Positions 10,836 to 32,032 of a DNA stretch of 64,000 nucleotides are shown here, piece after piece. The position numbers and the translations under genes are program-made. This DNA comes from a virus. The notes beneath the pieces were generated by a model. The model made no database searches. It was given only the letters and a program-made list of their open reading frames with translations, and was not told the origin of the DNA. The stretch covers positions 1-64,000 of the IMG/VR virus record IMGVR_UViG_3300021376_000028; one strand, given 5' to 3'. Position 1 is the stretch's first letter. Each line of letters opens with the position of its first letter.

Positions 10836-10838
10836 GAA

Positions 10839-11093
10839 CTATTCTGATTTTTTCTTAGAGGGCCTATTTTGTTTTGGTTGGATCTCTTCATTCCAGCTTA
10901 GACATCTTACACCATTTTCTACTAAATGTTCAGCACAGTCTTGTGAAATTTCACAAGTCAACGGTTTTCCAGTAAAAGCACAGTATGTTGCAGCAAGGTA
11001 AAAATCAGAACATTGAATTACATCAATTGTTTCAGGGTCAATAATTGCAAAGGGTCCGCAATCTTCACTGTCCACAATTGCAATTACTTTCAT
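10839..11093 (-). CDS. Hypothetical protein, probably leaderless
   Basis: TATAAT 6 nt upstream of ATG. Confidence 0.65.
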   Translation of the reverse strand: MKVIAIVDSEDCGPFAIIDPETIDVIQCSDFYLAATYCAFTGKPLTCEISQDCAEHLVENGVRCLSWNEEIQPKQNRPSKKKSE

Positions 11094-11264
11094 ATACTTA
11101 TTATACTTAATAAACTATTATAAGCATACAAGAATATACAAGTGTACTTGGCATGCTTTGCATGCGAAAGCATAGTGTTTTAGAAATCACCTGTCAAGCC
11201 GGAATTGCGTTTTTTTTATTTTTTTTCCAAAGCGTTTTTTGCGGAGATGCTGTATGATCTCCGC

Positions 11265-11969
11265 ATGGCCAGTATACCCGACCCAAGTTATTATGAAATT
11301 TTAGATTTTGGTTATGTTGAGTTAATTGACTTTTTTGGTTCTGACTTAGATGTTGTTAATTCAGCCAAAGTGTCATTCGCCTCACAAAAACAAGAAATAG
11401 ACGAGTCTTGCGTTGGTCTTATTAATTATCTTGTTAAGAACAGACATGCAACTCCCTTTGAGCATTGTGTTTTTAAATTCAGAATTAAAGCCCCAATCTT
11501 TGTTACTAGAGAGTGGATGAGACACCGCTGGTCCTCATTTAACGAAATGAGTATGAGATATCATAAACCAAATAAGATTGACTATTATGTACCAGCGTAT
11601 AGCGATATAAGACAGCAAGTTGGCAAACCCGGTGCTTATGTATTTCAAGAAATAGAAGATCCTTTAAAAAAAGAAATATACTATAAAAACATACAAGAGG
11701 TTTACCGAGTGGCTGACACTATATATAATTATCTGATTGAAATTGGTATTGCAAAAGAAATTGCAAGGATAGTTCTTCCTGTTGCTCAGTACACAGAATT
11801 TATTTGGACAGTTAATGCTCGTTCATTAATTAATTTTATTTCATTAAGAAATGAACAAAATGCCCAATATGAAATACAGCAATATGCAATTGCAATTGAA
11901 GAGTTGTTTAAAAAAACAATGCCAATTTCTCATGAAGCGTTTGAAACATCTGGTAGACTTCCAATATGA
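11265..11969 (+). CDS. thyX: FAD-dependent thymidylate synthase
   Basis: HATPFEH, REWMRHRWSSFNEMSMRY (RHRxxSxxxxSxRY), EIARIVLP; start ATG11265, 6 nt after TATGAT. Confidence 0.93.
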   Translation: MASIPDPSYYEILDFGYVELIDFFGSDLDVVNSAKVSFASQKQEIDESCVGLINYLVKNRHATPFEHCVFKFRIKAPIFVTREWMRHRWSSFNEMSMRYHKPNKIDYYVPAYSDIRQQVGKPGAYVFQEIEDPLKKEIYYKNIQEVYRVADTIYNYLIEIGIAKEIARIVLPVAQYTEFIWTVNARSLINFISLRNEQNAQYEIQQYAIAIEELFKKTMPISHEAFETSGRLPI

Positions 11970-15220: not shown

Positions 15221-15296
15221 GCCGGATTAGCTCAGTTGGCAGAGCAACGCACTTGTAATGCGTAGGTCGCAGGTTCAACTCCTGCATCCGGCTCCA
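15221..15296 (+). tRNA. tRNA-Thr(UGU)
   Basis: Cloverleaf; anticodon arm ACGCA-ctTGTaa-TGCGT; GGTTCAA T-loop; encoded CCA. Confidence 0.95.
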
Positions 15297-15305
15297 CAGA
15301 TTTAT

Positions 15306-15539
15306 ATGACAGAATTACAATGGTCTTGGCTGCTTGCATGCATGGGTGTTTCTGGTATGTACTTTGTTGGCAAAAAACGATGGGAAGCATTTCTATGGTT
15401 AATTGTTATGGAATGTCTATGGATCATCTTTGCTTTACAAACGAAAACATATGGTTTTATCTTGGGATCATTGGCCTACATGGCTGTATATTCAAAAAAT
15501 TTAAGATTATGGAAACAAGATAAAAACAATCAGAAATAG
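15306..15539 (+). CDS. Small membrane protein (PnuC-like fragment)
   Basis: Three hydrophobic segments; WSWLL..G..G..KRW pattern; ATG right after the tRNA. Confidence 0.55.
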   Translation: MTELQWSWLLACMGVSGMYFVGKKRWEAFLWLIVMECLWIIFALQTKTYGFILGSLAYMAVYSKNLRLWKQDKNNQK

Positions 15540-15584
15540 ACTAATAGGTAGTTCCACAGACTGTTAATATGTGTTTGAACATAA

Positions 15585-15656
15585 CCGAGCGTAACTCAGT
15601 GGTAGAGTATCTCCTTTACACGGAGGCGGTCGTAGGTTCAAATCCTACCGTTCGGA
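15585..15656 (+). tRNA. tRNA-Val(UAC)
   Basis: CCGAGCG/CGTTCGG acceptor; TCTCC-ttTACac-GGAGG; GGTTCAAATCC. Confidence 0.92.
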
Positions 15657-15660
15657 CAAT

Positions 15661-15948
15661 ATGAAAAAATTATTTAATAATATCGTTAGTGCAATTAAAA
15701 CGATGATTTCATCAAACTACTGGACGGCGGCAAATAAGGTGGAGGCCTGGGGCTTTGCAACTAAAATAACGATCATCTTTCCAGGCCTTTTGTTTGGCAA
15801 GCAGTTTTGGTGGCTATATATCTTTGCAATAATTTCAAGTTTGGCTTTGATATGGTCCTCTACAGTAAAGACACTGCCTACGATTATTCTTTTTAATGTT
15901 TTATGGGTGATGTTGGGAACTGCATCAATTATTAAACATTTTATTTAA
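15661..15948 (+). CDS. Membrane protein
   Basis: Three hydrophobic segments. Confidence 0.6.
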   Translation: MKKLFNNIVSAIKTMISSNYWTAANKVEAWGFATKITIIFPGLLFGKQFWWLYIFAIISSLALIWSSTVKTLPTIILFNVLWVMLGTASIIKHFI

Positions 15949-15966
15949 ATACAGAAAGACAATACT

Positions 15967-16212
15967 ATGAAAAAGAAAATAAGTTATCTTGGCTGGAAAG
16001 CAGCCCAGAAATTCTCAGCAGAATGTTATTTATATAAGGTTAAATATCAGATGTCAGAATCTCATAACAAGCTCTTAAGAGAGGAATATGATCGCCTTCT
16101 TAACTGTCGTTATAAATTGATAACCGCAGAAGAAAAAATTAAATCTATGGAATCCCAAATTGATTCTTTAAAAGCTGAAATTCAAAGATTGCAACAGGTT
16201 GCGCAATATTAA
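15967..16212 (+). CDS. Hypothetical coiled-coil protein
   Basis: ORF track. Confidence 0.55.
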   Translation: MKKKISYLGWKAAQKFSAECYLYKVKYQMSESHNKLLREEYDRLLNCRYKLITAEEKIKSMESQIDSLKAEIQRLQQVAQY

Positions 16213-16217
16213 AACAA

Positions 16218-16292
16218 TCGGGGATGGTGTAGTTGGCAACACATCAGGTTTTGGTCCTGAGATTGAGGGTTCAAGTCCTTCTCCCCGAACCA
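16218..16292 (+). tRNA. tRNA-Gln(UUG)
   Basis: TCGGGGA/TCCCCGA acceptor; TCAGG-ttTTGgt-CCTGA; encoded CCA. Confidence 0.93.
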
Positions 16293-16313: not shown

Positions 16314-16955
16314 ATGCCAGAATTAAATGCAAATATTCCGCCGATTGAATGTTATGTTCGGGGAAATTATTTAAGAAACCAAAAGGACTCTCATGACATA
16401 TATTTGCCATGCATGCTCTTCGGTGTCGCCTCCATCCAGGGCAGGAGCCCCTTATTTCATTTTCTAATGGAAGACGGGGGTGTTTGGTGGAGAATGCCAA
16501 TAAGTGCCTTCTGTGACCAGCCAGAAGTACCAGAGGTGGACATCCATGAACTGGTCCTATGGAACTCTTTTAGCCCCCATATCACCGTGACTGAATTTCA
16601 GGCAATGCGGAATATGAGAATGGAATATGTCTCAAGAAGTGGAAACTTTATAAAAGGAAAATATCTATTTACCCTGGATTGGCATGCTCCTGACGACAAC
16701 ACAACAAATCTCGGGTTTAGCACTAATCCCGGTCAGCATAAATGTGGTCATGTAATCATAAGGGATGATGGTAATTTTGCCATCCAGCCAAACAATCGGG
16801 TTCGGCTATATGATCCTTCATATACAACCAAGAAAACCAATTTAATTCATCGCCTTATTAATACTCAGCAATGGGATGTTGAAGATGCGGCCAAATGGGT
16901 AACATCAGATGATGACAGCTACCATTACGGCATTGTCACCGGAAATGAAGAATAA
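16314..16955 (+). CDS. Conserved phage protein of unknown function
   Basis: LNANIPPIECYVR..W.MPISAF..WNSFS..G.YLFTLDW..HKC.H..GNFAIQPNNR pattern; TAAAAT 6 nt before ATG. Confidence 0.7.
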   Translation: MPELNANIPPIECYVRGNYLRNQKDSHDIYLPCMLFGVASIQGRSPLFHFLMEDGGVWWRMPISAFCDQPEVPEVDIHELVLWNSFSPHITVTEFQAMRNMRMEYVSRSGNFIKGKYLFTLDWHAPDDNTTNLGFSTNPGQHKCGHVIIRDDGNFAIQPNNRVRLYDPSYTTKKTNLIHRLINTQQWDVEDAAKWVTSDDDSYHYGIVTGNEE

Positions 16956-17107
16956 GTTCGGTTAAAAGATAGTTCATAAATATATAAAACCACAACATAC
17001 ATTATTTTGTTTCAATGTCCGGTCGTGTTTATTTTCACATGCTATTATAATCCCGTTGCGAACGAAGACCAGCCGTGGCGCGGAAATGATACTATCCCCC
17101 AAAGCGC

Positions 17108-17518
17108 ATGAAGAGGAGATTAAAAATGCAATTATCATTGAAAACAATTAAATACATTTTTCCCCGAAGGGTTTACCATTACCTTTTAAAAAGAAGGATG
17201 TATTCAATTCTTTATAAGAATGGAGATTCTTCCATTGCTTTCTCTAATAAGATAAATATGTATAAGAATTATCTAGAAGAAGATAAGAAAGCCCCGCAGA
17301 AATATGAAGATATTGGTCTGCATTTTCTATCCCCGATTCCAAGACACGACCTTTCAAACTTTAATAAGTTGACGACGAGAGAAGACTTGAACAAATACGG
17401 CCATTCTCATACAAACTCAAAAATGCAAGGTTTGCCCGTCTATACAAAAATCTTTGGCAATCTTATGAAAAATCCTCCCCGCAAAAATGATCCAAAAGAC
17501 CCGCCCTCCATGGCGTGA
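17108..17518 (+). CDS. Hypothetical protein
   Basis: ORF track; GAGGAG suggests the start may be the second Met. Confidence 0.55.
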   Translation: MKRRLKMQLSLKTIKYIFPRRVYHYLLKRRMYSILYKNGDSSIAFSNKINMYKNYLEEDKKAPQKYEDIGLHFLSPIPRHDLSNFNKLTTREDLNKYGHSHTNSKMQGLPVYTKIFGNLMKNPPRKNDPKDPPSMA

Positions 17519-17638
17519 TGTGGTGTATGACATACACCAAAAAATTTTAATATTTTTGCAAAATTGAGTACATATCCGTGAAGTGTTACTTTATATATTA
17601 ATACTTACAACAAAGGGTCTGATTACCGAGTCAATCAG

Positions 17639-17738
17639 CTGGAGTGCATGTTTGTTTACAAACTTGTACTCCAGTCTGTTAGGGTGACCTAACATGGGAT
17701 TGAGTGCGTTTCTGTGCCCGTGTGCTATTGTAAGTGTG
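17639..17738 (+). promoter_or_regulatory. Cassette 1 module: inverted repeat + GTTAGG palindrome + extended -10 promoter
   Basis: CTGGAGTGCA..TGTACTCCAG; GTTAGG-gtga-CCTAAC; GAGTGCGTTT-14-TATTGT. Confidence 0.8.
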
Positions 17739-17777
17739 TCGGGGCAACCGCTCCGCACTACCGAAAGGACACACACG

Positions 17778-18137
17778 ATGGCTACGCCACGCCCATTCAA
17801 CGACGAGCAGCGAGAGCGGTTCGCAACACTATCAGCAGGCTTCATCGCCATCCTGCTGTGGACGCCCATTATCATGAGCCTCACCGCCACCGCGCAAGCG
17901 GGGGGCGATTTCTGGGACTTCTGGTGGGCTTTCATCCTGTCCGGTCTGTTCGGGATCGTCTTTGCCCTGTTCGGGTGGATGGCTTGCGACATCCGCATGG
18001 ACTACCGGCACGAGATGGCAGACCAGTACGAGAGAGATCGTGTCTGCTCCCAATGCCACAACGCATCGCTGGACCGAACATGGCGTCGCCAGCCCAAGAC
18101 CGGACTCCTGTTCAAGACAAAGATCAAGAACCGGTGA
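17778..18137 (+). CDS. Cassette 1 cargo: two-TM membrane protein with CxxC
   Basis: SD GAAAGGA; ATG17778 (MATPRPFNDEQ..); two hydrophobic helices; CSQC. Confidence 0.75.
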   Translation: MATPRPFNDEQRERFATLSAGFIAILLWTPIIMSLTATAQAGGDFWDFWWAFILSGLFGIVFALFGWMACDIRMDYRHEMADQYERDRVCSQCHNASLDRTWRRQPKTGLLFKTKIKNR

Positions 18138-18144
18138 CCAAATC

Positions 18145-18182
18145 TCCCCCCCTCGCCCGAACCCCCTCGGGCGAGGGGGGGA
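18145..18182 (+). terminator. GC hairpin ending cassette 1 (also at 18767, 19409, 19973, 20610, 21030, 21611)
   Basis: TCCCCCCCTCGCCCGA-accccc-TCGGGCGAGGGGGGGA right after the stop codon; no U-tract. Confidence 0.6.
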
Positions 18183-18243
18183 ACCCCCGCCGTTCTATTC
18201 AGACTGTCTAAGATATTGAATATGCAGTCTCTCTCTCCCCGTC

Positions 18244-18347
18244 GGTTGGTGTGCACGTTTGTTTACAAACTTAAGCGCCAATCTGTTAGGTATGCCTAAC
18301 GGGTCTCTTTGAGTGCGTTTCTGTGCCGGTGTGCTATTGTGAGTGTG
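18244..18347 (+). promoter_or_regulatory. Cassette 2 module
   Basis: Inverted repeat; GTTAGG-tatg-CCTAAC; GAGTGCGTTT; GTGCTATTGT. Confidence 0.8.
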
Positions 18348-18389
18348 TCGGGGAGAAACACAAGTACCCTCGGCAGGAAGGACAACACC

Positions 18390-18758
18390 ATGACCACGAA
18401 CCAGCCGACCGCCGATGCGGAGGCAATGGATGAGGGCGAGATCAAGCAAGCGTTCAGGGACGGGCGGGAAATCATCTCCGCACTCACGGACTGCATGACC
18501 AAGATCTGCTTCCACGATGGCGACCCGTACAACCAGCGCACCACGATGCTCTCCATTGCGGTGGGCAGGAACATCATCAACGAGATCCGCAGGACACACG
18601 AGATCCTCCACGATCTCGCAATGCTGATCGACGAGGACGACTACACTCTCTGGTCGCATGGCATCGCCGGGGAACTCCTCCGAGCCGGAAGGATCAGCCG
18701 AAAGGATTACTGGGACCTCTACTGCCAGGGTTGGCTCATCGACAACTGCAACTGCTGA
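18390..18758 (+). CDS. Cassette 2 cargo: hypothetical protein
   Basis: SD GGAAGGA; ATG18390 (MTTNQPTADAE..); GC-rich codons. Confidence 0.75.
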   Translation: MTTNQPTADAEAMDEGEIKQAFRDGREIISALTDCMTKICFHDGDPYNQRTTMLSIAVGRNIINEIRRTHEILHDLAMLIDEDDYTLWSHGIAGELLRAGRISRKDYWDLYCQGWLIDNCNC

Positions 18759-18866
18759 CAACAATCTCCCCCCCTCGCCCCCTCCCCCTCGGGCGAGGGG
18801 GGGAACCCCCACCGTTCTGACGGTGCTTCCTTATAGATTGAGTATACACAAGGATCACTTCACATC

Positions 18867-18970
18867 GGTTGGTGTGCAAGTTGGTTCACTGACTTAAACA
18901 CCAACCTTGTTAGGTATGCCTAACGGTCTCTTTGAGTGCGTTTCTATGGCGATGTGCTATTGTAAGAGTG
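18867..18970 (+). promoter_or_regulatory. Cassette 3 module
   Basis: GGTTGGTGT..ACACCAACC; GTTAGG-tatg-CCTAAC; TGTGCTATTGT. Confidence 0.8.
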
Positions 18971-19007
18971 TCGGGAGAACCCCAAGTACCTCGACGGAAA
19001 GGAAATC

Positions 19008-19403
19008 ATGGGCGTCGTCATTGAGCCGGACTACCAGCGTCAACGCAGGGACAAGGTGATCGTGCCTTGCGAGTGCGGTGCCTCCGTGGAGGTCAACTAC
19101 GAAGACTGGTATGCAGACCAGTCGGCATGGTGCCAGGCAGGACAGCACTACTTCTACATCAGCGAGGACGAGTGGTACATCAATCCGCATGGAGTGGAGT
19201 GGCATGAGGTCCACATCACGATGGGGCGCTGGGACTGGATTCACCGGGCAATGGGGCTCGGACCCGGCAGTTGGGTTGGGTTCATGCACCCCGACATCCT
19301 CGGCGCTCTCCTGCCCCGTGCCAGCAGCGACCCGTTCTACGATGCTCTGATGAGTGTCGTGGACACCGCCCAGACTCTGAACGTCATGGTCAAGTGGTCC
19401 TGA
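19008..19403 (+). CDS. Cassette 3 cargo: Trp-rich protein with CxC..CxxxxH (possible Zn ribbon)
   Basis: SD GAAAGGA; ORF track. Confidence 0.75.
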   Translation: MGVVIEPDYQRQRRDKVIVPCECGASVEVNYEDWYADQSAWCQAGQHYFYISEDEWYINPHGVEWHEVHITMGRWDWIHRAMGLGPGSWVGFMHPDILGALLPRASSDPFYDALMSVVDTAQTLNVMVKWS

Positions 19404-19498
19404 AAATCTCCCCCCGCCCGAACCCCCTCGGGCGGGGGGAACCCCCACCGATCTATACATACTGTCTGTGATATTTAATACGCAGTCTCTCTCTATCA

Positions 19499-19601
19499 GC
19501 TGGCGTGCAAGTTGGTTCACTGACTTAAACGCCAGCGTATTAGGTATGCCTAACTGGTCTCTTTGAGTGCGTTTTCGTGCTCGTGTGCTATTGTAAGTCT
19601 G
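19499..19601 (+). promoter_or_regulatory. Cassette 4 module
   Basis: GCTGGCGT..ACGCCAGC; ATTAGG-tatg-CCTAAC; TGTGCTATTGT. Confidence 0.8.
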
Positions 19602-19635
19602 TCGGGGGGACGGTCCCCACGACGGAAAGGAAAGC

Positions 19636-19947
19636 ATGGGCAAGCGCTACAACTCAACGGCGGTCATGGAGGTGTTGGTGGTGATCACCAGTAGGCTCTA
19701 CTTCACCGGCACACCATTCTCGGAGGAGGACTTCGACGAGTGGCAGTCCCGCCTGCTCGGTCTCGTCCGCGAGATGAGCGACCAACTGGACAAGGAGGAT
19801 GTCGCGGACGCCATCAATGCCGAGATCGTCCTCAAGAACGGAATGCGGTCCTACGAGGACTTGCTGCACGAGTTCAGCGAGCTCGTCAGGACTGGCATTC
19901 CCACCTGGAGAGTCGGGCTGCGTCAGATGTCTCGCTCCCCCAACTGA
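19636..19947 (+). CDS. Cassette 4 cargo: acidic helical hypothetical protein
   Basis: SD GAAAGGA; ORF track. Confidence 0.75.
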   Translation: MGKRYNSTAVMEVLVVITSRLYFTGTPFSEEDFDEWQSRLLGLVREMSDQLDKEDVADAINAEIVLKNGMRSYEDLLHEFSELVRTGIPTWRVGLRQMSRSPN

Positions 19948-20056
19948 CCGAATGAGCCATCACTCTCCCCCGCCCCCCTCGCCCTCGGGCGAGGGGGGAA
20001 CCCCCACCGGTTCAGGCAGACATCCATGTTGATTTAATATACGTTTTCTCCCTGTA

Positions 20057-20158
20057 AGCTGGTGTGCAAGTTGGTTTACAAACTGAAACACCAGTTCGTT
20101 AGGGCAACCTAACATGAAATTGAGTGCGTTTCCACGGTCTTATGCTATTGTAAGTGTG
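20057..20158 (+). promoter_or_regulatory. Cassette 5 module
   Basis: CTGGTGT..ACACCAG; GTTAGG-gcaa-CCTAAC; TATGCTATTGT. Confidence 0.8.
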
Positions 20159-20192
20159 TCGGAGGGACGGTCTCTCCGACAGGAAGGAAACC

Positions 20193-20375
20193 ATGCCAAT
20201 ACAATTGACCTGTCCGTACTGCGACAGGACATTCACATACGACACCGTGACATTCATCGGTGCGAGCAAGAAGATGTCCACGCACAAGGCTCGTTGCCCG
20301 AAGAAACGATACCTCGGCGGTGACTTGGAGATCGGAACAGCCGAGGATGCCCGTGAACTGCTGGAGGGGGAGTGA
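20193..20375 (+). CDS. Cassette 5 cargo A: small C2HC-type zinc-finger-like protein
   Basis: SD GGAAGGA; ATG20193 MPIQLTCPYCDRTF..HKARC. Confidence 0.7.
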   Translation: MPIQLTCPYCDRTFTYDTVTFIGASKKMSTHKARCPKKRYLGGDLEIGTAEDARELLEGE

Positions 20376-20605
20376 TGACCTACGAAGACTTTGAGAGGCT
20401 CGTCCAGTCATCGTTCCCCAATGACGGCAACATCCGGTACGGACAGCATTGGTTCAACACCCTGTATTCGGTGAGGCCCGGGGTGGCTAACCTCATCAGG
20501 GGGACACTCCACGATCCTTTCCACCGAGAGAAGGTTTCAGAGCAGACGCAAGGCTATGCCCGTGCGCTCTGGAGCGACCTTCGTGCTCACGACACGGTGA
20601 ACTGA
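20372..20605 (+). CDS. Cassette 5 cargo B: hypothetical protein (RYGQ..FN.L..DPF family)
   Basis: GTGA coupling with cargo A; GGAGG upstream. Confidence 0.7.
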   Translation: MMTYEDFERLVQSSFPNDGNIRYGQHWFNTLYSVRPGVANLIRGTLHDPFHREKVSEQTQGYARALWSDLRAHDTVN

Positions 20606-20698
20606 ATCCTCCCCCCGCCCTCGGGCGGGGGGAACCCCCATCCGTTCAGACAGACATCTATACTTATTTAATATATATATCTCTCTGTCTACACGCAG

Positions 20699-20799
20699 CT
20701 GGCGTGCGGGTGAGTTTACAAACTTAAACGCCAGTCCGTTAGGTTAGCCTAACAGTCTCTTTGAGTGCGTTTCTGTGCTCGTGTGCTATTGTAAAGATG
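20699..20799 (+). promoter_or_regulatory. Cassette 6 module
   Basis: CTGGCGT..ACGCCAG; GTTAGG-ttag-CCTAAC; TGTGCTATTGT. Confidence 0.8.
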
Positions 20800-20830
20800 T
20801 CGGGGAGACTCCCCGACGGAAAGGAAAGCA

Positions 20831-21007
20831 ATGAGTAACAGACTGAGAAACGTACTCGCTAGGGTGTATTGGTACCTAACGACATTCAGGGCGCTGAAAG
20901 GATCGCACCAACCGTGTCGCCACTGCTACTTCCGTTGGCTGAACGAGAAGCGCAACCGTTGGTTGTGGTTGTGGTGCGACAACGACTGCAACTGGGGCAA
21001 CGAGTAG
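20831..21007 (+). CDS. Cassette 6 cargo: 58-aa Trp/Cys/Arg-rich peptide (not in ORF track)
   Basis: SD GAAAGGA; MSNRLRNVLARVYWYLTTFRALKGSHQPCRHCYFRWLNEKRNRWLWLWCDNDCNWGNE*; stop just before the GC hairpin. Confidence 0.75.
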   Translation: MSNRLRNVLARVYWYLTTFRALKGSHQPCRHCYFRWLNEKRNRWLWLWCDNDCNWGNE

Positions 21008-21126
21008 CCCCAACACTCGGACCAAGATCTCCCCCCCTCGCCCCCCTCTCCCTCGGGCGAGGGGGGGAACCCCGACCGGTCTAGGCAGTCTGTCTATAAT
21101 GTTTAATATACAGCCTTCCTTCATCA

Positions 21127-21228
21127 GCTGGCGTGCGAGTTAGTTCACTGACTTAAACGCCAGCCTGTTAGGGGCACCTAACGGTCTCTTTGAGTGCGTT
21201 TCTGTGCCGGTGTGCTATTGTAAGTGTG
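21127..21228 (+). promoter_or_regulatory. Cassette 7 module
   Basis: GCTGGCGT..ACGCCAGC; GTTAGG-ggca-CCTAAC; TGTGCTATTGT. Confidence 0.8.
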
Positions 21229-21261
21229 TCGGCGGGACGGTCCCGCCGACAGAAAGGCACC

Positions 21262-21597
21262 ATGAACAAGGTGAAAATCAACGGGCGATGGGTGAGCGCA
21301 AGCAACCCTCCCACAATAAGCGAAGTGTGGCACCTAGTGCTACCGGCGAAGCACGATGCGATCCGGACACTTACCAACCTCATCGCCGGACTGGAGACCC
21401 TGGTGGTGGCGTTGGAAGCCCTGCTCGCTGAACACCCATACGAGATCCAGGACCCCAGGACAGCCTTGCTATGGGAGAAGCACCACGCCCGGATCACTCG
21501 GGAAATCGGCAAGAACCAACGAGAGCGGAACGCCGCCAAGTTGCGCTACCGGCAGATGGTCCAAGTGCTGGAGTGGTACGACAACAGCGTGTCCTGA
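21262..21597 (+). CDS. Cassette 7 cargo: helical hypothetical protein
   Basis: SD GAAAGG; ATG21262 (MNKVKINGRW..). Confidence 0.75.
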   Translation: MNKVKINGRWVSASNPPTISEVWHLVLPAKHDAIRTLTNLIAGLETLVVALEALLAEHPYEIQDPRTALLWEKHHARITREIGKNQRERNAAKLRYRQMVQVLEWYDNSVS

Positions 21598-21790
21598 ACA
21601 CGCCCCCTGCCCCCCCCTCGCCTTCGGGCGAGGGGGGGAACCCCCACCGATCCAGTCACATCAACACATTAAATTGAATATACGGTTTCTCTCACTTCAT
21701 CAGCTGGCGTGCAGGTCGGCTTACTGACTTAAACGCCAACTCATACAGACAGGCCAGACTCTTATATTTAATATACACTTTCTCCCTGTA

Positions 21791-21892
21791 AGCTGGTGTG
21801 TACGAGCTTTAGCGAAGTTAAACACCAGCTTTGTTAGGTTCACCTAATAAAAAAAAGAGTGCGTTTTTGTGACGGTGTGCTATTGTAAGGGC
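21791..21892 (+). promoter_or_regulatory. Cassette 8 module (leaderless)
   Basis: AGCTGGTGT..ACACCAGCT; GTTAGG-ttca-CCTAAT; TATTGT 6 nt before ATG. Confidence 0.8.
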
Positions 21893-22276
21893 ATGGCAAA
21901 CAAGCCGGAGCCGACCGCTAAGGCGGAGGACAACAACAACAACCACAGCAAGCCGAGGAAGATCAACCTCTCCGAACTGAAAGGCACGGTGTCCCCACGG
22001 GGGCGCAAGCCCTACACGGACGAGGCGTTGGTCCAGTACCTCACGGAGATGGTGCAGGACGGAGAGGGCTTCGGACTGGACGCTCCCTACGAGGTCACCG
22101 ACGACATGCGCAAGGGCACCCCACGGGGCGTGAAGGCGCAGAACCGCGAGCGTGCCAAGTGGCGCAACCGCATCGTGTCGGTGTGGACCTCCACGCTCGG
22201 CAGGGACAAGGGCGAGATCACCGTCGGGTGGACCTCGGAGCACGAGGTCACCGTCTCCCTCAGGAACAAGGCGTAG
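21893..22276 (+). CDS. Cassette 8 cargo: putative DNA-binding protein (RGRK motif), paralog of cassette 9 cargo
   Basis: KINLSELKG..RGRKPY..YLTEMV..EGFG..AKWRNRIVS shared with 22539..22886. Confidence 0.75.
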   Translation: MANKPEPTAKAEDNNNNHSKPRKINLSELKGTVSPRGRKPYTDEALVQYLTEMVQDGEGFGLDAPYEVTDDMRKGTPRGVKAQNRERAKWRNRIVSVWTSTLGRDKGEITVGWTSEHEVTVSLRNKA

Positions 22277-22286
22277 AAAGGCGCTG

Positions 22287-22333
22287 AAAAACCGCAAGGT
22301 TTTTACCCTCCCCTTCGGGGGAGGTTTTTTTTT
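22287..22333 (+). terminator. Intrinsic terminator (tandem hairpins)
   Basis: AAAAACC-gcaa-GGTTTTT, then CCTCCCC-ttcg-GGGGAGG plus T9. Confidence 0.85.
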
Positions 22334-22344
22334 GTCCAAAATCG

Positions 22345-22380
22345 TTGGCGTTCAAGATGCTGAAGCATCTTGAACGCCAA
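22345..22380. repeat. 36-bp palindrome, copy 1
   Basis: TTGGCGTTCAAGATGCT-ga-AGCATCTTGAACGCCAA; identical copy at 22954-22989. Confidence 0.95.
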
Positions 22381-22436
22381 TCCGTACAAGGCAACGCTCT
22401 CTTCCCTTGAATACATTTTCCTAACTTACTTGAGAA

Positions 22437-22538
22437 GCTGGTGTTCAATAGCTTTAGCTAAATTGAACACCAGCGATGTTAGGCTGACCTAATAAGAAAA
22501 TGAGTGCGTTTTCGTGCCGGTGTGCTATTGTAGGAGTC
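22437..22538 (+). promoter_or_regulatory. Cassette 9 module (leaderless)
   Basis: GCTGGTGTTCAAT..ATTGAACACCAGC; GTTAGG-ctga-CCTAAT; TATTGT 7 nt before ATG. Confidence 0.8.
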
Positions 22539-22886
22539 ATGGCAACCAATGCCGGTGACCGCAATAGCGGAACCAACCCAAAGAAAATCAACCTGTCCGA
22601 CCTGAAAGGTAAGACTTCCCAACGGGGGCGCAAGCGGTACGCAAACGCCACCCTCACGGAATACCTGAGGGAAATGGTGAGCACACGGGAAGGCTTCGGT
22701 GTTCCCGAACTCTTGACCGTGACTCCCAAGACAACGGAGAAGCAAATCCAGACCCAAAAAGCAAAGTGGCGCAACCGCATTGTGTCATTGTTTGAGGAAC
22801 TGAACTTCCCGGGACACCGCATCAGTATTTCGTGGACGGACGCTCACGAAATGGTCGTGGAAATGGTTGAGACCACCGAAGGCTGA
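22539..22886 (+). CDS. Cassette 9 cargo: putative DNA-binding protein, paralog of cassette 8 cargo
   Basis: KINLSDLKG..RGRKRY..YLREMV..EGFG..AKWRNRIVS. Confidence 0.75.
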   Translation: MATNAGDRNSGTNPKKINLSDLKGKTSQRGRKRYANATLTEYLREMVSTREGFGVPELLTVTPKTTEKQIQTQKAKWRNRIVSLFEELNFPGHRISISWTDAHEMVVEMVETTEG

Positions 22887-22897
22887 GGAACCTTCAT

Positions 22898-22942
22898 AAA
22901 AAACGAAAGTTTTTTGACTCCGCTTCGGCGGAGTTTTTTTTT
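22898..22942 (+). terminator. Intrinsic terminator (tandem hairpins)
   Basis: AAAAAAC-gaaa-GTTTTTT, then ACTCCGC-ttcg-GCGGAGT plus T run. Confidence 0.85.
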
Positions 22943-22953
22943 GTCCAAAATCG

Positions 22954-22989
22954 TTGGCGTTCAAGATGCTGAAGCATCTTGAACGCCAA
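22954..22989. repeat. 36-bp palindrome, copy 2
   Basis: Identical to 22345-22380, including upstream T-run + GTCCAAAATCG. Confidence 0.95.
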
Positions 22990-23879
22990 TACTTTTATCC
23001 TTATATTCATACTAATTGAGTATACTTACTTGGCAAGGTTAGACCCTCCTTATATATTCTCTTTTTTTAATTGGTGGTCGTTTAAGAAATGCATTTCTTA
23101 AACACACCAATTAAATTAAATTTATTCTTTCCATTATGTTTAGTATTTTCTAATCGCATAGTCATCGCGTTGTCCTTTCAATTGCATTTCCTAATTGATT
23201 TGCGGGTGCCAATGGCTCACCAGTTCCCTTGGTAAATTCCCTCCTAATAGCCTGGGTGAATAGGTCACTCAAACCCCCCCTCAATTTACTCAACAAGAAT
23301 AAAATTCATGGATCTGGATATAGATAGGGTTAGGAGCATAGGAATAGTCTCTTCATATAGCCGCCTTCCCCAAATTCATATTAAAAATCGGGTTAAAAGC
23401 CCTCTATTCAACCTATATAAGAGGTATAAGAATAAACTTAATGGAAAATAGGCAAAATTTTTTTGTTTTTAATTAAAAGTTGACTATTTTAATCAACTTT
23501 TATTAAGTTTTAGAATAAAATTAACCGCTTTTTGGCACAAAAAAAAGCCTTAAAAATAAGATTTCTCTTACTTCTAAGGCTTTCTTTGCTTAATTACAAT
23601 GGATTCGGGGGTACACCATAGTAATTAATAAATATTGACGCAAATTGTCGTGCGTGTCGTCTCTTTATAATACTTTTGAAGCATATATCTTTTAAATATT
23701 TGCTTCTTGTTTTAGGGCTTCCTAAGACTCCTGGAGATCTTCCTCTATATCTCTAAAGAACTCTTCATTAGCCCAATCCCATTTTTCTTTTTCCCGCTCA
23801 TACCAAACAACATAACAACCCCAGCACATTGGGTTTGCCATATCTGATATATCACAGCATAAATCTTGCTTATTATCTA

Positions 23880-24119
23880 TCATTCCTTGTCTTCCTTTAA
23901 ATAAGGGAATTCGTATTCAAAATTGTCAATCACTTGGCGGATTACATCCAATTCCATTTCCAGCCATGTAACATCATTTTGATCCATATAGGGAATGTCC
24001 TGAGAGATCTTATTATAATAGTATTTTAAAGCGGCCACCGTATATTTGACCTCTTTGCCACTATAAAAAGTAACGCTCCCGCTCATAATTTCCTCTTTTT
24101 TTCTATTATTCACAGTCAT
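23880..24119 (-). CDS. Hypothetical protein
   Basis: ORF track; the true start may be MSGSV after GAGG. Confidence 0.5.
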   Translation of the reverse strand: MTVNNRKKEEIMSGSVTFYSGKEVKYTVAALKYYYNKISQDIPYMDQNDVTWLEMELDVIRQVIDNFEYEFPYLKEDKE

Positions 24120-24215
24120 GCCCGTATTGATATTCCTCTAAGGGAATATCCTTATTACACTCAGGGCAAGTAACAAGCCAACCAATATTCTCTAGAATTT
24201 CTTCTTCCTCATCCA

Positions 24216-24590
24216 TCACGTAAGCCTGTAACTTCTATCTTTTGAATAGTTTCCATCACCGTCAAATACCATCATAGCAAGATACTTTTCCCATTCCTCT
24301 GGAAAATAGGAATCATGAAGGAATTGCAAATCCCCAAGCATTTTAAAAGAAGTAGGACCCATGTCCCACTCAGGATTACTCTTCTGGATAGCTTCTACAA
24401 TGTAATCTCTATCATAAGGCTCCCCCTCAAAAAATGCCCTGTAATTATTATCGTGTATAAGAACACCTACGGCACACTTTTTATTTTTGCTACCGCGATA
24501 ACCGCACCCCCATTCATCATTCAGGCACTTTTCATTCTGCTGCAAGAGGTGATCTTTCACAATTTTAAAGATGTCTTGATCGTTCATCAT
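24216..24590 (-). CDS. Hypothetical protein, paralog family A
   Basis: HLL.Q..C.YRG..KCAVG.LI..SNP.W..LQ.LHD shared with 27536 and 40520 ORFs. Confidence 0.7.
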   Translation of the reverse strand: MMNDQDIFKIVKDHLLQQNEKCLNDEWGCGYRGSKNKKCAVGVLIHDNNYRAFFEGEPYDRDYIVEAIQKSNPEWDMGPTSFKMLGDLQFLHDSYFPEEWEKYLAMMVFDGDGNYSKDRSYRLT

Positions 24591-24714
24591 GTTTTCTTTC
24601 CGTGTACACAAGTGTACACATTTGATATATTGTACTTAGGATAATTGGTATTAAATATTAGGTTTATTTTACAAGCCACCAAGCTTGTAAATCTTAATTT
24701 CTTTTTTAAATAAC

Positions 24715-24975
24715 TTATAAAATTGGATAACCAGTGTTGTCATGGCAAGTATCAATATCGTTAAAGTTAATCTTTTTAACCAAGATTGCACCATCATCGT
24801 CCTTTATGTCAGAAATAAAAAGTTGTAAGGTATCAATAAAATCATCAAGATCACCCTCACGGAATGTACCGTTTGTTATGGCAAAATCATGCAATTTTTG
24901 GTCATTTGCAAAACAAGCCAAACCGACAATGATAGTCCCAATATTTTGTTTACTTAAAAAAATGTTGTCAATCAT
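24715..24975 (-). CDS. Hypothetical protein
   Basis: ORF track; dense - strand operon. Confidence 0.55.
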   Translation of the reverse strand: MIDNIFLSKQNIGTIIVGLACFANDQKLHDFAITNGTFREGDLDDFIDTLQLFISDIKDDDGAILVKKINFNDIDTCHDNTGYPIL

Positions 24976-25189
24976 TAATTACTCCAAGTCTTGATGCTTT
25001 TTCGTATAAAAAATTGTATTTATTTCTAAAGTGTGTGATCTTTGCGCTAAAAAGATTGCGCTCTTCTTCGCTCAAAAGATTTATTGATTCCTCCAGGGTA
25101 CTGTCTAGTTGTTTAAGACTAGCTTGAAAAAGCTTAAGTTGTTGTCTTGCCTCTGTTTTTAAATTTTCTTGAGCATCACCCTTCTCCAT
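24968..25189 (-). CDS. Hypothetical coiled-coil protein
   Basis: Likely start MEKGD (ATG25189). Confidence 0.5.
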   Translation of the reverse strand: MEKGDAQENLKTEARQQLKLFQASLKQLDSTLEESINLLSEEERNLFSAKITHFRNKYNFLYEKASRLGVIND

Positions 25190-25445
25190 CAGCAAGCATT
25201 CCTTCCTCAAGAGGAGTAATACTGATAGCGTTTCCCGTTTTGGTAATTCCAAACAAAGAGCCTGGACCATTACCCTCAGGATCACAAGAAGCATAAACTT
25301 TGCTACCATCACTAAATTCTAATACTGCTGTATTATTCCAACGAATATCATCCCAGCCTTCGTTTAGTGCTTCTTCTTCTGAAAGCCATCTCACATTCGT
25401 ACACTTAAGGCCAACTGGATGCGCTACCTTTTTACTTTTCATCAT
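25176..25445 (-). CDS. Hypothetical phage protein (..YASCDPEGNGPGSLF family)
   Basis: Recurring phage motif DxEGNGPG.LF. Confidence 0.6.
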   Translation of the reverse strand: MMKSKKVAHPVGLKCTNVRWLSEEEALNEGWDDIRWNNTAVLEFSDGSKVYASCDPEGNGPGSLFGITKTGNAISITPLEEGMLADGEG

Positions 25446-25619
25446 ATTTTACTCAATTCTTAAATGTTTCTTCAAATTTATTTATTAAAACTTCTATTGT
25501 ATTTCTTGCATTATCATTCTTAGACAACCAATAATCTAACAATTGGTCGTCAAGTATAAGATTATGCAACCCAGACAATAAAATCTTGACTTCTTCTTTG
25601 TTTAAATCAACAACACTTC

Positions 25620-29867: not shown

Positions 29868-30569
29868 TTATGGCGTTTCAATAGAAGGTATTTGGAAAGG
29901 ATTATACTTTCTATATTCAGCCATAATAACATGTCGATATTTAGTGAAAAACTTGTTATAGTATTTATCAGTGACCGGTCCAAAATAACCGTCAACACCT
30001 ACGCCTATAATTTTCTGTATTTGATAAACGTATTTGTTTTTATCTCCAAGTTTATATTCTCTAAATAAGATCTTTGTAGGAAATTTCTTAAAAAGAACTG
30101 GGTTCCCTACATTCTTTTTACATCCCCAGCCACCAAAACCAACAGCATCTCTAAAGAAAGGTTTTTTAGTTAACTTGTCTTTAAGAGTTATAAATTCATT
30201 TTTAGTTTGATATCCCTGAGTTGATATCCTGTTTGCAACAGTAATTTGCTCTTCAACCGTTGCTAATTCTGGCTTTTTAGCGAACTCTAATCCGCCAAAG
30301 TTAATCCATGTCTGAGTATATATGCCCAATCCACCGGACCATTTTCCTTTGTCTTTCCAGTCACCACCTGTTTCGCATTGGGCCATCCTATGCCAATACA
30401 AATTCAATGCTCTGGGTTTTCCCCGCTCACTAAAAGCAGGGACGTTATTATTAATTTTAATTTCCTGTGTATTTGTTTCAGCCTCAACAGGAACTGGCTG
30501 ATAATAAAAATAGCCGTTCGTGAGAACGGTTAAAAGTAAAAATCTTAATATAAGATGTTTAGTTTTCAT
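29868..30569 (-). CDS. Secreted Rpf-like lytic transglycosylase with peptidoglycan-binding tail
   Basis: Signal peptide; WHRMAQCETGGDW..GGLG..TW..FGG..AT.EEQI.VA Rpf core; C-terminal VDGYFGPVT. Confidence 0.8.
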   Translation of the reverse strand: MKTKHLILRFLLLTVLTNGYFYYQPVPVEAETNTQEIKINNNVPAFSERGKPRALNLYWHRMAQCETGGDWKDKGKWSGGLGIYTQTWINFGGLEFAKKPELATVEEQITVANRISTQGYQTKNEFITLKDKLTKKPFFRDAVGFGGWGCKKNVGNPVLFKKFPTKILFREYKLGDKNKYVYQIQKIIGVGVDGYFGPVTDKYYNKFFTKYRHVIMAEYRKYNPFQIPSIETP

Positions 30570-30761
30570 TTTTCGCTCCTTAAAACTATTGGTTTTACGG
30601 AACATTAATATAGCCTACAAACTACATAACATTTCCGTATTAGCATACTGCTAAGGTTGCGAAACAAGATCACTGCACATTAATAATGCTACTTGTTCCA
30701 CAAGATTACTCTTATAGGCATCACCTCCAAATACATAATTATAATTATATCAGATCTTAAC

Positions 30762-30838: not shown

Positions 30839-30845
30839 TAGTTTA

Positions 30846-31509: not shown

Positions 31510-31524
31510 TTAGACACGCATTCC

Positions 31525-31798: not shown

Positions 31799-31800
31799 AA

Positions 31801-31998: not shown

Positions 31999-32032
31999 TT
32001 AGTGTTCCTCATAATTGTGAAAATTTGCATAA

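Follow-up and report, generated by a model that had tools for sequence, protein, structure and literature searches.

What is an island of small, GC-rich genes doing in an AT-rich phage, and how are its genes gained and lost? The window analyzed here (the whole stretch of 64,000 nucleotides, part of an 85,677-bp viral contig) contains an array of nine units with 53-59% GC, while the phage otherwise has 33-40% GC. Our preferred answer, to which we assign a probability of about 0.7, is that the array is an immediate-early region of the "host-takeover" type, similar to PeSL regions, in which general recombination acts at the repeats.

Genomic context

The contig appears to represent an uncultured, siphovirus-like freshwater (lake-water) phage that is distantly related to the Streptomyces cluster BE phages (Stanwilliamsviridae), to which its major capsid protein and its DnaE-type polymerase show 51% and 38% identity, respectively. 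It carries an Rpf-type transglycosylase domain (PF06737), and its host is probably a high-GC actinobacterium. The array is located downstream of ThyX, on the same strand, in the place where cluster BE phages have a long terminal repeat of small early genes. The position of ThyX matches the boundary of the terminal repeat of NootNoot, in which small genes likewise follow one another with a recurring intergenic module and GC is raised, at 58% versus 48% (PMC5764925). By analogy, the array may lie in a terminal repeat and may be expressed early.

Architecture of the array

The nine scaffolds could be aligned over ~130 nt, and the alignments confirmed the order of parts claimed in the preliminary description in 9/9 units: an AT motif, a ~36-nt hairpin (hairpin-1), the GTTAGG/CCTAAC hairpin (hairpin-2), GAGTGCGTTT and TGCTATTGT, with one ORF per unit (two in unit 5). 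Motif counts over the whole 85,677-bp contig gave 9 exact copies of GAGTGCGTTT, 9 copies of TGCTATTGT and, with one mismatch allowed, 9 copies of GTTAGG-N4-CCTAAY, all on the plus strand within 17678-22531 and none outside the array; seven of the nine strict matches of the AT motif in the contig also fall inside it. Hairpin-1 starts at 17639, 18246, 18869, 19500, 20059, 20699, 21128, 21793 and 22438, i.e., at spacings of 607, 623, 631, 559, 640, 429, 665 and 645, within 1 nt of those first reported (607, 624, 630, 559, 640, 429, 666, 645). The features are as follows.

17591-17731, +, scaffold 1: AT motif ~17591-17607, hairpin-1 17639-17674, hairpin-2 17678-17693; predicted promoter (upstream element 17700-17711, extended -10 17723-17731)
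17778-18137, +, cargo c1: 119 aa, two predicted hydrophobic helices, ORFan; 5' hairpin and SD upstream
18145-18182, +, unit 1 3' GC-rich hairpin: poly-C/poly-G arms, no T run
18216-18340, +, scaffold 2: AT motif 18216, hairpin-1 18246-18281, hairpin-2 18285-18300; predicted promoter (upstream element 18309-18320, -10 18332-18340)
18390-18758, +, cargo c2: 122 aa, ORFan
18767-18804, +, unit 2 3' GC-rich hairpin
18838-18963, +, scaffold 3: AT motif 18838, hairpin-1 18869-18904, hairpin-2 18909-18924; predicted promoter (upstream element 18932-18943, -10 18955-18963)
19008-19403, +, cargo c3: 131 aa, ORFan
19409-19440, +, unit 3 3' GC-rich hairpin
19467-19594, +, scaffold 4: AT motif ~19470, hairpin-1 19500-19535, hairpin-2 19539-19554 (ATTAGG variant); predicted promoter (upstream element 19563-19574, -10 19586-19594)
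19636-19947, +, cargo c4: 103 aa, ORFan
19965-19999 (limits approximate), +, unit 4 3' GC-rich hairpin
20033-20151, +, scaffold 5: AT motif 20033, hairpin-1 20059-20094, hairpin-2 20098-20113; predicted promoter (upstream element 20120-20131, -10 20143-20151)
20193-20375, +, cargo c5a: 60 aa, CxxC...C zinc-ribbon-like
20375-20605, +, cargo c5b: 76 aa; 1-nt overlap, the last A of the c5a TGA being the A of the c5b ATG
20610-20633, +, unit 5 3' GC-rich hairpin
20667-20792, +, scaffold 6: AT motif 20667, hairpin-1 20699-20734, hairpin-2 20738-20753; predicted promoter (upstream element 20761-20772, -10 20784-20792)
20831-21007, +, cargo c6: 58 aa, Cys/Trp-rich ORFan
21030-21068 (limits approximate), +, unit 6 3' GC-rich hairpin
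21102-21221, +, scaffold 7: AT motif 21102, hairpin-1 21128-21163, hairpin-2 21167-21182; predicted promoter (upstream element 21190-21201, -10 21213-21221)
21262-21597, +, cargo c7: 111 aa, ORFan
21611-21638, +, unit 7 3' GC-rich hairpin
21673-21740, +, relic half-scaffold: AT motif and hairpin-1, then restart at the pre-AT segment
21767-21886, +, scaffold 8: AT motif 21767, hairpin-1 21793-21828, hairpin-2 21833-21848 (CCTAAT); predicted promoter (upstream element 21855-21866, -10 21878-21886)
21893-22276, +, cargo c8: 127 aa, leaderless-looking, ATG 6 nt after TATTGT
22307-22380, +, unit 8 predicted canonical terminator (hairpin 22307-22324 and T9) together with the palindrome that follows it
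22345-22380, perfect palindrome after the unit 8 terminator: hairpin-1 family, inverted loop GCTGAAGC
22407-22531, +, scaffold 9: AT motif 22407, hairpin-1 22438-22473, hairpin-2 22478-22493; predicted promoter (upstream element 22500-22511, -10 22523-22531)
22539-22886, +, cargo c9: 115 aa, c8 paralogue, leaderless-looking, ATG 7 nt after TATTGT
22916-22989, +, unit 9 predicted canonical terminator (22916-22935 and T run) together with the palindrome that follows it
22954-22989, perfect palindrome after the unit 9 terminator
23015-23110, +, distal end piece: AT motif 23015-23025, palindrome 23070-23110 (..AGAAATGCATTTCT..); conserved in the L150 and L151 arrays
23533-23590, no strand assigned, conserved hairpin flanked by an A run and a T run: bidirectional-terminator-like, between the array and convergent minus-strand genes

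The tenth, half scaffold (AT motif and hairpin only), in the region of which the scaffold covariance model matched partially (21703-21792), is probably the scar of a lost cassette. Around c9, a 58-nt perfect direct repeat is present at 22324-22381 and 22933-22990, and the palindromes at 22345-22380, 22954-22989 and 23070-23110 are three extra members of the hairpin-1 family.

Homologous arrays and cassette turnover

Viral contigs were searched with the covariance model of the scaffold (R1), and homologous arrays were identified in at least six other related contigs, with 6-15 clustered, same-strand matches in each of G002, G011, G016, G017, G018 and G019. They also sit in GC islands, and in L150 and L151 the flanks on both sides of the array are those of this phage. 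Rather than the same cargo in a fixed order, the homologous scaffolds hold cargo that is different, replaced, added or reordered: L153 and L154 share DNA blocks of 73-91% identity interrupted by unalignable cargo, and cassettes ordered A-B-C in G011 are ordered A-C-x-B in G016. The preliminary view, in which each cassette is a self-contained expression unit that combines a conserved regulatory scaffold with variable cargo, is supported.

None of c1-c7 had a homologue in the eight other arrays, c2 matched only itself in a search of 5.8 billion proteins, and searches of GTDB bacterial genomes and GenBank phages gave no homologue of the cargo or of the c8 family. Within the array only c8 and c9 are similar (43% identity), as had been described. 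Their family is the only cargo common to all nine arrays: relatives were present in 9/9 arrays, always at the distal end and in 2-4 copies. The proteins are basic, with the motifs RKxNLSxLxG..RGR and KAKWRNR. The three scaffold lineages that were examined closely all have c8-like genes that start 6-7 nt after the -10, a distance that fits a leaderless mRNA.

Promoters and hairpins

Three parts are invariant across lineages, namely the extended -10 (TGnTATnnT) and, upstream of it, the element TTKARTRC and a hairpin (invariant columns in the three lineages: TG.TAT..T; T.A.T.C; and TGG.G / C.CCA in hairpin-1). The GTTAGG/CCTAAC hairpin, counted as part of the scaffold in the preliminary description, does occur nine times here; it is restricted to this lineage and missing from the sister arrays L150 and L154. 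The TTGAGT-like element lies 20 nt from the -10, which is too far for a standard -35, and the scaffold promoters were not flagged by a simple sigma-70 scan.

In the immediate-early reading, the region would be built of nine single-gene transcription units. The promoter of each would be an extended -10 (TGCTATTGT) of the host sigma-A/sigma-70 type, preceded by a conserved upstream element (TTGAGTGCGTTT); translation of the small ORFan would start either behind a 5' stem-loop and a strong Shine-Dalgarno sequence or without a leader. Ahead of the promoter, several hairpins stacked in the sense-strand RNA, namely the 3' GC hairpin, hairpin-1 and, specific to this lineage, hairpin-2 with a U-rich tail behind it, would end or insulate transcription from upstream, although a terminator function of the 3' hairpins of units 1-7 is doubtful because they have no T run. 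In the hairpin stems, 91.5% of cells are paired and compensatory changes occur at four pairs; the mismatches are 16 G.T/T.G versus 1 A.C. If these were DNA palindromes decaying neutrally, both kinds should be about equally frequent; the asymmetry speaks for a structure in sense-strand RNA and against a double-stranded operator.

Across lineages, hairpin-1 keeps an almost fixed distance of 97-104 nt to the -10, and its stem bases (TGGYGT/ACRCCA) are conserved in sequence, which would not be expected of a mere upstream terminator and hints at a protein partner or a role at the DNA level. A less likely alternative, compatible with the immediate-early reading, is that the palindrome and the AT motif are mainly the binding site of a phage regulator rather than a terminator or insulator, the AT motif being a copy of the upstream element of the promoter. 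The likeliest regulator would be the leaderless c8/c9-family protein, which might switch all units off or on at once by binding the hairpin, as RNA or as extruded DNA, in front of each promoter (candidate actions are early shut-off, antitermination or mRNA processing). The ubiquity and basic motifs of the family fit this, as do the same-family perfect palindromes on either side of c9 and, in L154, an AT motif that nearly copies the promoter upstream element ~97 nt away, so that two copies flank hairpin-1. Binding by c8/c9 is putative, however: neither structure nor family searches gave a significant match for the c8 model (the best VIA Z, 6.1, is within the tool's stated noise range, and R3H/IF3-C-like folds reached only Z 4-5), and the co-occurrence of the family could be explained by shared ancestry of the arrays.

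It is unlikely that the palindromes are simply operators of a dimeric repressor, with RNA structure irrelevant. The arrays in the equivalent place in G001 and G003 are indeed packed with short, operator-like perfect palindromes (GTGTAATATTACAC and TCTAACGTTAGA), and the outer half-sites CTGGYGT/ACRCCAG are conserved; but apart from the mismatch asymmetry, the variable position of the outer stem changes on both arms with pairing kept (UA, CG, AU, UG), and a hairpin is kept through free sequence variation of the inner stem and loop.

Recombination and origin of the array

For the exchange of cassettes, the ~130-nt repeats would be substrates for ordinary homologous recombination, and the phage RecA claimed earlier was found at 56004-56930; with both present, cassettes may be lost, replaced and reordered among relatives. 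The preliminary description had proposed a gene-capture or shuffling system with recombination between scaffolds; no machinery dedicated to gene capture was found. Site-specific recombination at a GTTAGG/CCTAAC-type core, as in integrons or transposons, would make the array a mobile platform, and it is true that these motifs resemble by eye the integron core (GTTRRRY) and inverse core (RYYYAAC), that the array consists of unrelated small ORFs and that relatives differ in cassette order. We consider this very improbable: no integrase, transposase or reverse transcriptase was found among ~50 proteins scanned in the window and the remaining 21.7 kb of the contig, the order of the motifs is opposite to attC with a spacing of only 4 nt, they are absent from homologous arrays as noted, every cassette has its own predicted promoter, and the L153/L154 breakpoints coincide with borders between cargo and scaffold and have long homologous scaffold on either side, as homologous recombination predicts.

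That the island was recently acquired by horizontal transfer from a phage or host of high GC, or is a chimera, unrelated to the expression programme of the phage, is largely rejected, despite the abrupt 20-point GC step at both ends, the ORFan cargo and the relatives G004 and G005 (81% identity, close by flanking gene) with neither an array at the homologous position nor an R1 match, since both junctions are bridged by Logan contigs from four runs (with two independent JGI contigs, 99.9% identical, across the right one as well), which rules out the assembly chimera considered at the outset, the stretch is present in 20 runs, raised-GC homologous arrays are bounded by the same genes in other AT-rich relatives, the terminal repeat of cluster BE isolates stands out in GC in the same way, and the bacterial and phage databases searched hold no homologues.

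Codon usage

Cargo genes have a GC3 of 0.67-0.92, compared to 0.25-0.42 in backbone genes, and avoid the A-ending codons read by the six phage tRNAs (Thr-UGU, Val-UAC, Gln-UUG, Ile-UAU, Lys-UUU and Leu-UAA): TTA accounts for 0/83 Leu codons in the cargo versus 28% in the backbone, ATA for 4% versus 24%, AAA for 15% versus 70% and GTA for 2% versus 16%. For a high-GC host such as the one proposed, the cargo codons look host-like, and host tRNAs could thus decode the GC-rich cargo before those of the phage are produced.

Comparison with known systems

PeSLs consist of a poly-G/poly-C stem-loop, an AT-rich tract, a sigma-70 promoter and an SD site, and are repeated before ORFans in hyperplastic regions (PMC2839356, PMC4122927). 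The comparators named in the preliminary description, PeSL cassettes and the SPO1 host-takeover module, were apt. The scaffold had seemed unrecognizable there, with more parts than a PeSL; its hairpin stack (a candidate terminator or insulator) and extended -10 promoter can be recognized as the PeSL design. The array shares with PeSL regions a composite of a predicted terminator and early promoter and, probably, the swapping of genes between related phages at the repeats, and it appears to be a new actinophage version of these early-gene cassettes.

Architecture of the array

The linear viral contig (85,677 bp; CheckV completeness 82%), the initial 64 kb of which form the window, carries nine units of one design on the + strand between 17.6 and 23.1 kb. 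The whole contig was scanned for GAGTGCGTTT, TGCTATTGT and GTTAGG-N4-CCTAAY, and each of them was found in nine copies, all in the array. In the aligned scaffolds, the 5' part comprises the G/C-tract hairpin at the 3' end of the prior gene, a conserved GAACCCCCACCG-like tail and an AT motif (ATTKARTATRC), and the 3' part a 36-nt hairpin (hairpin-1), a 16-nt hairpin (hairpin-2), TTGAGTGCGTTT, 11 nt and TGCTATTGT. Downstream of TGCTATTGT follow a 5' stem-loop, GGAAAGGA and the ATG, except in units 8 and 9, in which the ATG is instead only 6-7 nt away. The palindrome spacings reported in the preliminary description were remeasured as 607, 623, 631, 559, 640, 429, 665 and 645 nt, at most 1 nt off the earlier values. 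There are ten cargo ORFs (c1 to c9 by unit, with c5a and c5b in unit 5), and, as that description had also stated, the sole resemblance among them is that of c8 with c9 (43% identity). A relic half-scaffold and additional palindromes of the hairpin-1 family had not been recorded there.

Features of the array and its distal border (window coordinates)
17639, 18246, 18869, 19500, 20059, 20699, 21128, 21793 and 22438, + strand: starts of hairpin-1 in the nine units
21673-21740: relic half-scaffold
22345-22380: extra palindrome, hairpin-1 family
22954-22989: extra palindrome, hairpin-1 family
23070-23110: extra palindrome, hairpin-1 family
23533-23590: noncoding, conserved hairpin resembling a bidirectional terminator, separating the array from convergent minus-strand genes

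The same perfect direct repeat of 58 nt stands behind c8 and behind c9. The border hairpin (GGGCACAAAAAAAAGGCTTAAAAATAAGATTTCTCTTACTCCTAAGCC) is near-invariant in this phage and in L150 and L151 (two IMG/VR loci with related arrays), the neighbouring sequence having diverged, and probably acts as a bidirectional terminator where the convergent units meet. A genome-wide phage promoter was considered for the AT motif and ruled out by its concentration in the array (contig scan); on reading the sequence, it also has no -10/-35 partner at a consistent distance that would make it a full promoter. In Rfam searches only the tRNAs reached the gathering score, and matches in the array were at chance level.

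Composition, integrity and population variation

The GC content of the array is 53-59%, against 33-40% in the genome, and GC3 is 0.67-0.92 in the cargo compared to 0.25-0.42 in backbone genes. An assembly chimera, which the preliminary description had envisaged as an alternative, is contradicted by Logan contigs of four runs that bridge the left junction (16437-18191, 16437-18331 and 16823-17959) and the right junction (22928-23522 and 22961-25416). Two independent JGI contigs from other samples span 18056-23701 and 21649-25615 with 99.9% identity, and the array stretch occurs in 20 lake-water metagenome runs (no RNA runs are listed among the sequencing runs that contain it).

Other contigs of the same four runs match the window through 17557-17559 and again from 25774, with a different sequence between, so that co-occurring relatives vary exactly in this segment. 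This marks a putative population-level variable segment from 17557-17559 to 25774, with its start slightly ahead of the first AT motif. No scaffold-to-scaffold joints were present in the Logan contigs of the four runs, in which rare variants are dropped.

Homologous arrays in related viruses

The scaffold array had no match in GenBank phages (blastn), and its exact form is known only from this phage according to pattern scans of IMG/VR and metagenomes. The metagenome scan returned 57 loci, among which only L020 and L030 are real (both from this phage); the remaining 55 contain a single match each, near the chance number by a rough estimate. The L150-type pattern was found in IMG/VR only in its own contig, and a loose L154-type pattern gave, among the matches listed, mostly singles that are chance-like by judgement rather than by computation.

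A profile of c8 and c9 searched against 1.84 billion representative proteins yielded a family of 18 hits, and the back-search of IMG/VR with this family identified five loci (L150 to L154), all of them GC islands of 44-51% inside phages of 30-35% GC. L150, L152, L153 and L154 each comprise 8-12 tandem units with a recognisably homologous scaffold; L151 is truncated and retains the last units only. The flanking genes of L150 and L151 match the window on both sides, which places these arrays at the same locus. A covariance model (R1) spanning hairpin-1 through the -10 was built on 24 scaffolds from three lineages, and it gave clustered same-strand hits in the related viral records G002 (8), G011 (14), G016 (8), G017 (15), G018 (6) and G019 (12), with zero hits in eleven further related records, mostly incomplete ones.

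Arrays at the equivalent place in two other related records, G001 and G003, use other motifs, namely the perfect palindromes GTGTAATATTACAC and TCTAACGTTAGA. In G001, a complete relative of 105.7 kb, the locus L149 (G001:79000-91000) holds a different array at about 3400-11400 of the locus, with dozens of GTGTAATATTACAC copies plus CTTTATG at a spacing of 0.5-1.6 kb and distant c8-like genes at its end (E about 2e-3). In G003, the locus L280 (G003:1-8600) is an array of 45-62% GC, the scaffolds of which contain several 12-bp TCTAACGTTAGA palindromes, some inside hairpin arms, as well as GACTTTATG; it has the look of the same design in a repressor-operator form.

Predicted promoter and hairpins of the scaffold

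TG.TAT..T is invariant in the 24 scaffolds from three lineages; the other invariant columns are T.A.T.C of the upstream element and TGG.G / C.CCA of hairpin-1. The -10 reads TGCTATTGT in this phage, TGYTATAGT in L150 and TGNTATNNT in L154, and TGnTATnnT is, judged by this conservation among homologues, a predicted extended -10 promoter of the sigma-70/sigma-A type. In each of the three scaffold lineages that were read closely, the ATG of the c8-like gene stands 6-7 nt past the -10, i.e., at transcription-start distance, and leaderless mRNAs are therefore predicted. The upstream element (TTGAGTGC in this phage, TTTAGTAC or TTGAATAC in the other lineages) precedes the -10 by 20-21 nt. A simple sigma-70 scan left the scaffold promoters unflagged, because the -35-like element is 20 nt off, beyond normal -35 spacing; the element may be an unusual -35 or a site for a factor. 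The AT motif of L154 closely copies the upstream element and lies ~97 nt upstream of it, across hairpin-1.

In the nine-unit alignment of hairpin-1, 91.5% of the cells are paired (27-43% in slid controls), four pairs are altered on both sides, and the non-Watson-Crick cells comprise 16 G.T/T.G vs. one A.C. Decay of a palindrome in double-stranded DNA would produce G.T and A.C equally, so the excess of G.T indicates that the fold was selected on the + strand, where it would act most simply as RNA. Hairpin-1 lies between the 3' hairpin and the promoter, and transcription from upstream thus has to reach it. The hairpin stack is best read as an insulator, a back-up terminator or a processing site, by which each promoter would be kept independent; the same insulating role was proposed for the stem-loop of PeSLs, the promoter-early stem-loop cassettes of T4-type phages (PMC2839356). 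Hairpin-2 is confined to this lineage and, with the trailing GGTCTCTTTG, has a terminator-like score in three units. From hairpin-1 to the -10 there are 97-99, 100-102 or 103-104 nt, depending on the lineage, and this near-constancy, together with the conserved stem bases, fits a plain terminator poorly and keeps a model with a protein partner alive. Processing of hairpin-1 by RNase III is only a possibility.

Cargo turnover and probable recombination

No homologues of c1 to c7 were detectable in the eight other arrays. Relatives of c8/c9 occur in 9/9 arrays (2-4 copies), always at the distal end. G002 and G017 have three cargos in common, the order of which is kept with additional units interleaved in G017, and the order of shared cargos is A-B-C-(c8-like) in G011 and A-C-(c8-like)-B in G016 and G019. 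L153 and L154 share DNA blocks of 73%, 86% and 91% identity that are split by unalignable cargo of similar length. Between this phage (G000) and L150/L151, the flanks are conserved and the cargo is unrelated, as in the hyperplastic regions that house PeSLs. Borders of indels, replacements and rearrangements fall at the repeats, as illustrated by the L153/L154 blocks, the cargo order in G011 and G016, and the relic half-scaffold at 21673-21740, which by its structure is a putative local scar of cassette loss.

The shuffling of cassettes suggested in the preliminary description is thus borne out by comparison, the cargo of relatives being neither the same nor in fixed order; no dedicated enzyme for it emerged, as no integrase or recombinase was found among the proteins of the 85.7-kb contig scanned with Pfam and PHROGs (a set that leaves out some small ORFs). 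Homologous recombination between the ~130-nt repeats would suffice for shuffling, and the phage has RecA; general homologous recombination was likewise argued for PeSLs (PMC2839356, PMC4122927).

Phage relatives and likely host

The major capsid protein and the DnaE-type polymerase are 51% and 38% identical, respectively, to those of Streptomyces cluster BE phages (Stanwilliamsviridae), and the contig also encodes ThyX, RecA and DnaB. The six tRNAs (Thr-UGU, Val-UAC, Gln-UUG, Ile-UAU, Lys-UUU and Leu-UAA) all read A-ending codons. The phage relatives, the genome content, the tRNAs and the leaderless-looking starts point to a high-GC actinobacterium as the likely host, and the Rpf-type transglycosylase domain (PF06737) of a 245-aa protein supports this, as it is typical of Actinobacteria and their phages.

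Other genes of the window
15221-16292 and 30762-33504: tRNA genes
29868-30605, - strand: 245-aa protein with PF06737
14383-14994, + strand: 203-aa protein, C-terminal match to proteasome subunit PF00227 (E 4e-7)
9825-10835, 48885-49988, 52961-53494, 53496-54818, 56940-57992 and 62465-63037: glycosyltransferase/nucleotide-enzyme set

Actinobacteria possess proteasomes, and a proteasome-like subunit encoded by a phage would be unusual. The glycosyltransferase/nucleotide-enzyme set consists of three glycosyltransferases (one with a match to 'GT4 in conflict systems'), a nucleoside 2-deoxyribosyltransferase, a DNA methyltransferase and a 5'-nucleotidase-like protein, besides ThyX and RNR, and suggests that the DNA bases may be modified or glycosylated.

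Codon usage and cargo function

The codons read by the phage tRNAs are exactly those that the cargo avoids and that are common in the AT-rich backbone.

Codon usage, cargo vs. backbone
TTA (Leu): 0/83 vs. 28%
ATA (Ile): 4% vs. 24%
AAA (Lys): 15% vs. 70%
GTA (Val): 2% vs. 16%
CAA (Gln): 37% vs. 70%
ACA (Thr): 23% vs. 46%

This usage fits translation of the cargo by the host pool before phage tRNAs would exist. Differences in codon usage between early and late phage genes are generally known (PMC5683454); the contrast is unusually sharp here, and the other arrays and the repeat of phage NootNoot (see below) share the contrast in GC. The sharp codon split offers a clean, testable case of temporal translation partitioning between host and phage tRNAs.

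None of the cargo proteins c1 to c9 matched a Pfam or PHROG family above threshold, and c2, c3 and c8 returned self-matches only in a word search of 5.8 billion proteins. c1 has two hydrophobic helices and c5a a CxxC...C pattern. Searches of GenBank phages and GTDB genomes for the c8/c9 family found no member. The structure model of c8 (pLDDT 79.6) retrieved nothing from the PDB at E<=0.001 with Foldseek, and the top hit in the VIA wide search (Z 6.1) is within the noise range stated for the tool; hits resembling R3H and IF3-C at Z 4-5 are a lead only. An RGR motif prompted us to consider c8/c9 as Lsr2-like, which lacked Pfam support, and no Lsr2-like gene was seen among the cargo. The nine ORFan cargo proteins, like the conserved c8/c9 family, are candidate host-takeover or anti-defence factors in Actinobacteria.

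We consider it rather unlikely that the array is, beyond a PeSL-like stack of promoters, a self-regulating module in which the always-retained, leaderless-looking c8/c9 protein binds the sense-strand hairpin found at a fixed distance before each promoter and so times, processes or shuts off all cassettes jointly, with the GC-rich coding of the array, independent of phage tRNAs, as the first half of a two-phase translation. If true, two-phase translation would let a phage of ~36% GC grow in a high-GC actinobacterium.

Comparison with the terminal repeats of cluster BE phages

The direct terminal repeats of cluster BE phages, ~11 kb long, carry 20-25 small genes whose functions are unknown (Hughes et al. 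2018, PMC5764925). Long direct terminal repeats are also present in SPO1 and T5. The NootNoot repeat (locus L009, 1-10787) contains small same-strand genes with spacers of 110-270 nt, lies directly beside ThyX and has a GC content of ~58% vs. ~48% elsewhere; a module of a TAGACT -10-like element, a TGTCCGGGCCCGACA palindrome and GC hairpins is repeated intergenically. A limited literature search found no description of this GC enrichment or of the module. In the phage studied here, ThyX (11205-11969) precedes the array and shares its strand, which makes the array positionally equivalent to the BE terminal repeat. The two have in common a related capsid/DnaE-type polymerase backbone, small same-strand genes beside ThyX and a GC content above the genome mean, and both kinds of phages carry tRNAs and are far more AT-rich than their known or likely host. 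However, the scaffold sequences are unrelated, and the GC content is ~36% in this phage compared to 50% in cluster BE. No repeat was found at the ends of the 82%-complete contig. The k-mer depth of array contigs was 1.5-2x that of flanking contigs in four runs, which is only a hint, since the depth of a contig does not equal copy number, and the same could result from GC bias or from strains that share the sequence.

Comparison with known systems

Judged by its sequence organization and by the way it evolves, the array is best described as a PeSL-type cassette array of probably early genes, without homology to the T4-type PeSLs, which were described from RB49/phi1, T4/PST and KVP40/nt-1 (Arbiol et al. 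2010, PMC2839356; Comeau et al. 2014, PMC4122927). Both share a module of ~100 nt before small ORFans, in which a stem-loop with G/C tracts is followed by an AT-rich tract, a host-type promoter and an SD (in the nine aligned scaffolds, these parts are the G/C hairpin, the AT tract, TGnTATnnT and either an SD or a leaderless start), and in both the cassettes cluster in a hyperplastic region and are inserted, deleted or replaced at repeats, with no dedicated recombinase found. The array does not belong to the T4-type PeSL family itself: the backbone is nearest to cluster BE siphoviruses, and the scaffold has no match among GenBank phages. Unlike the phages with PeSLs, its phage is an unrelated siphovirus-like BE relative with a likely actinobacterial host. 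The promoter appears to be an extended -10 promoter whose upstream element is unusual, and two apparent sense-strand hairpins are added between terminator and promoter. Further differences are some leaderless-looking cassettes, the strong GC/codon island and the always-retained c8/c9 family.

The host-takeover module of SPO1 and the early regions of T7 and SP82 consist of small early genes, singly or paired, with strong promoters for the host RNAP and intercistronic hairpins, which in T7 and SP82 are cleaved by RNase III to give 3' ends with a stabilising effect. The array is like these regions in layout, without sequence homology. Integrons (IntI/attC) also have tandem single-gene cassettes with unrelated small ORFs and imperfect palindromes between them, but no integrase was found for the array, each of its cassettes has its own promoter-like element, and the variation between its relatives fits homologous recombination. 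The attC layout (RYYYAAC ... GTTRRRY) is also lacking, as GTTAGG precedes CCTAAC with a 4-nt loop and the pair is missing from the sister arrays.

As a PeSL-type array, it would extend the principle of repeated terminator-promoter modules as both drivers of early ORFans and seams for shuffling beyond the T4-type phages of Gram-negatives to widespread uncultured freshwater actinophages, and it links the long terminal repeats of cluster BE, so far unexplored, to this principle.
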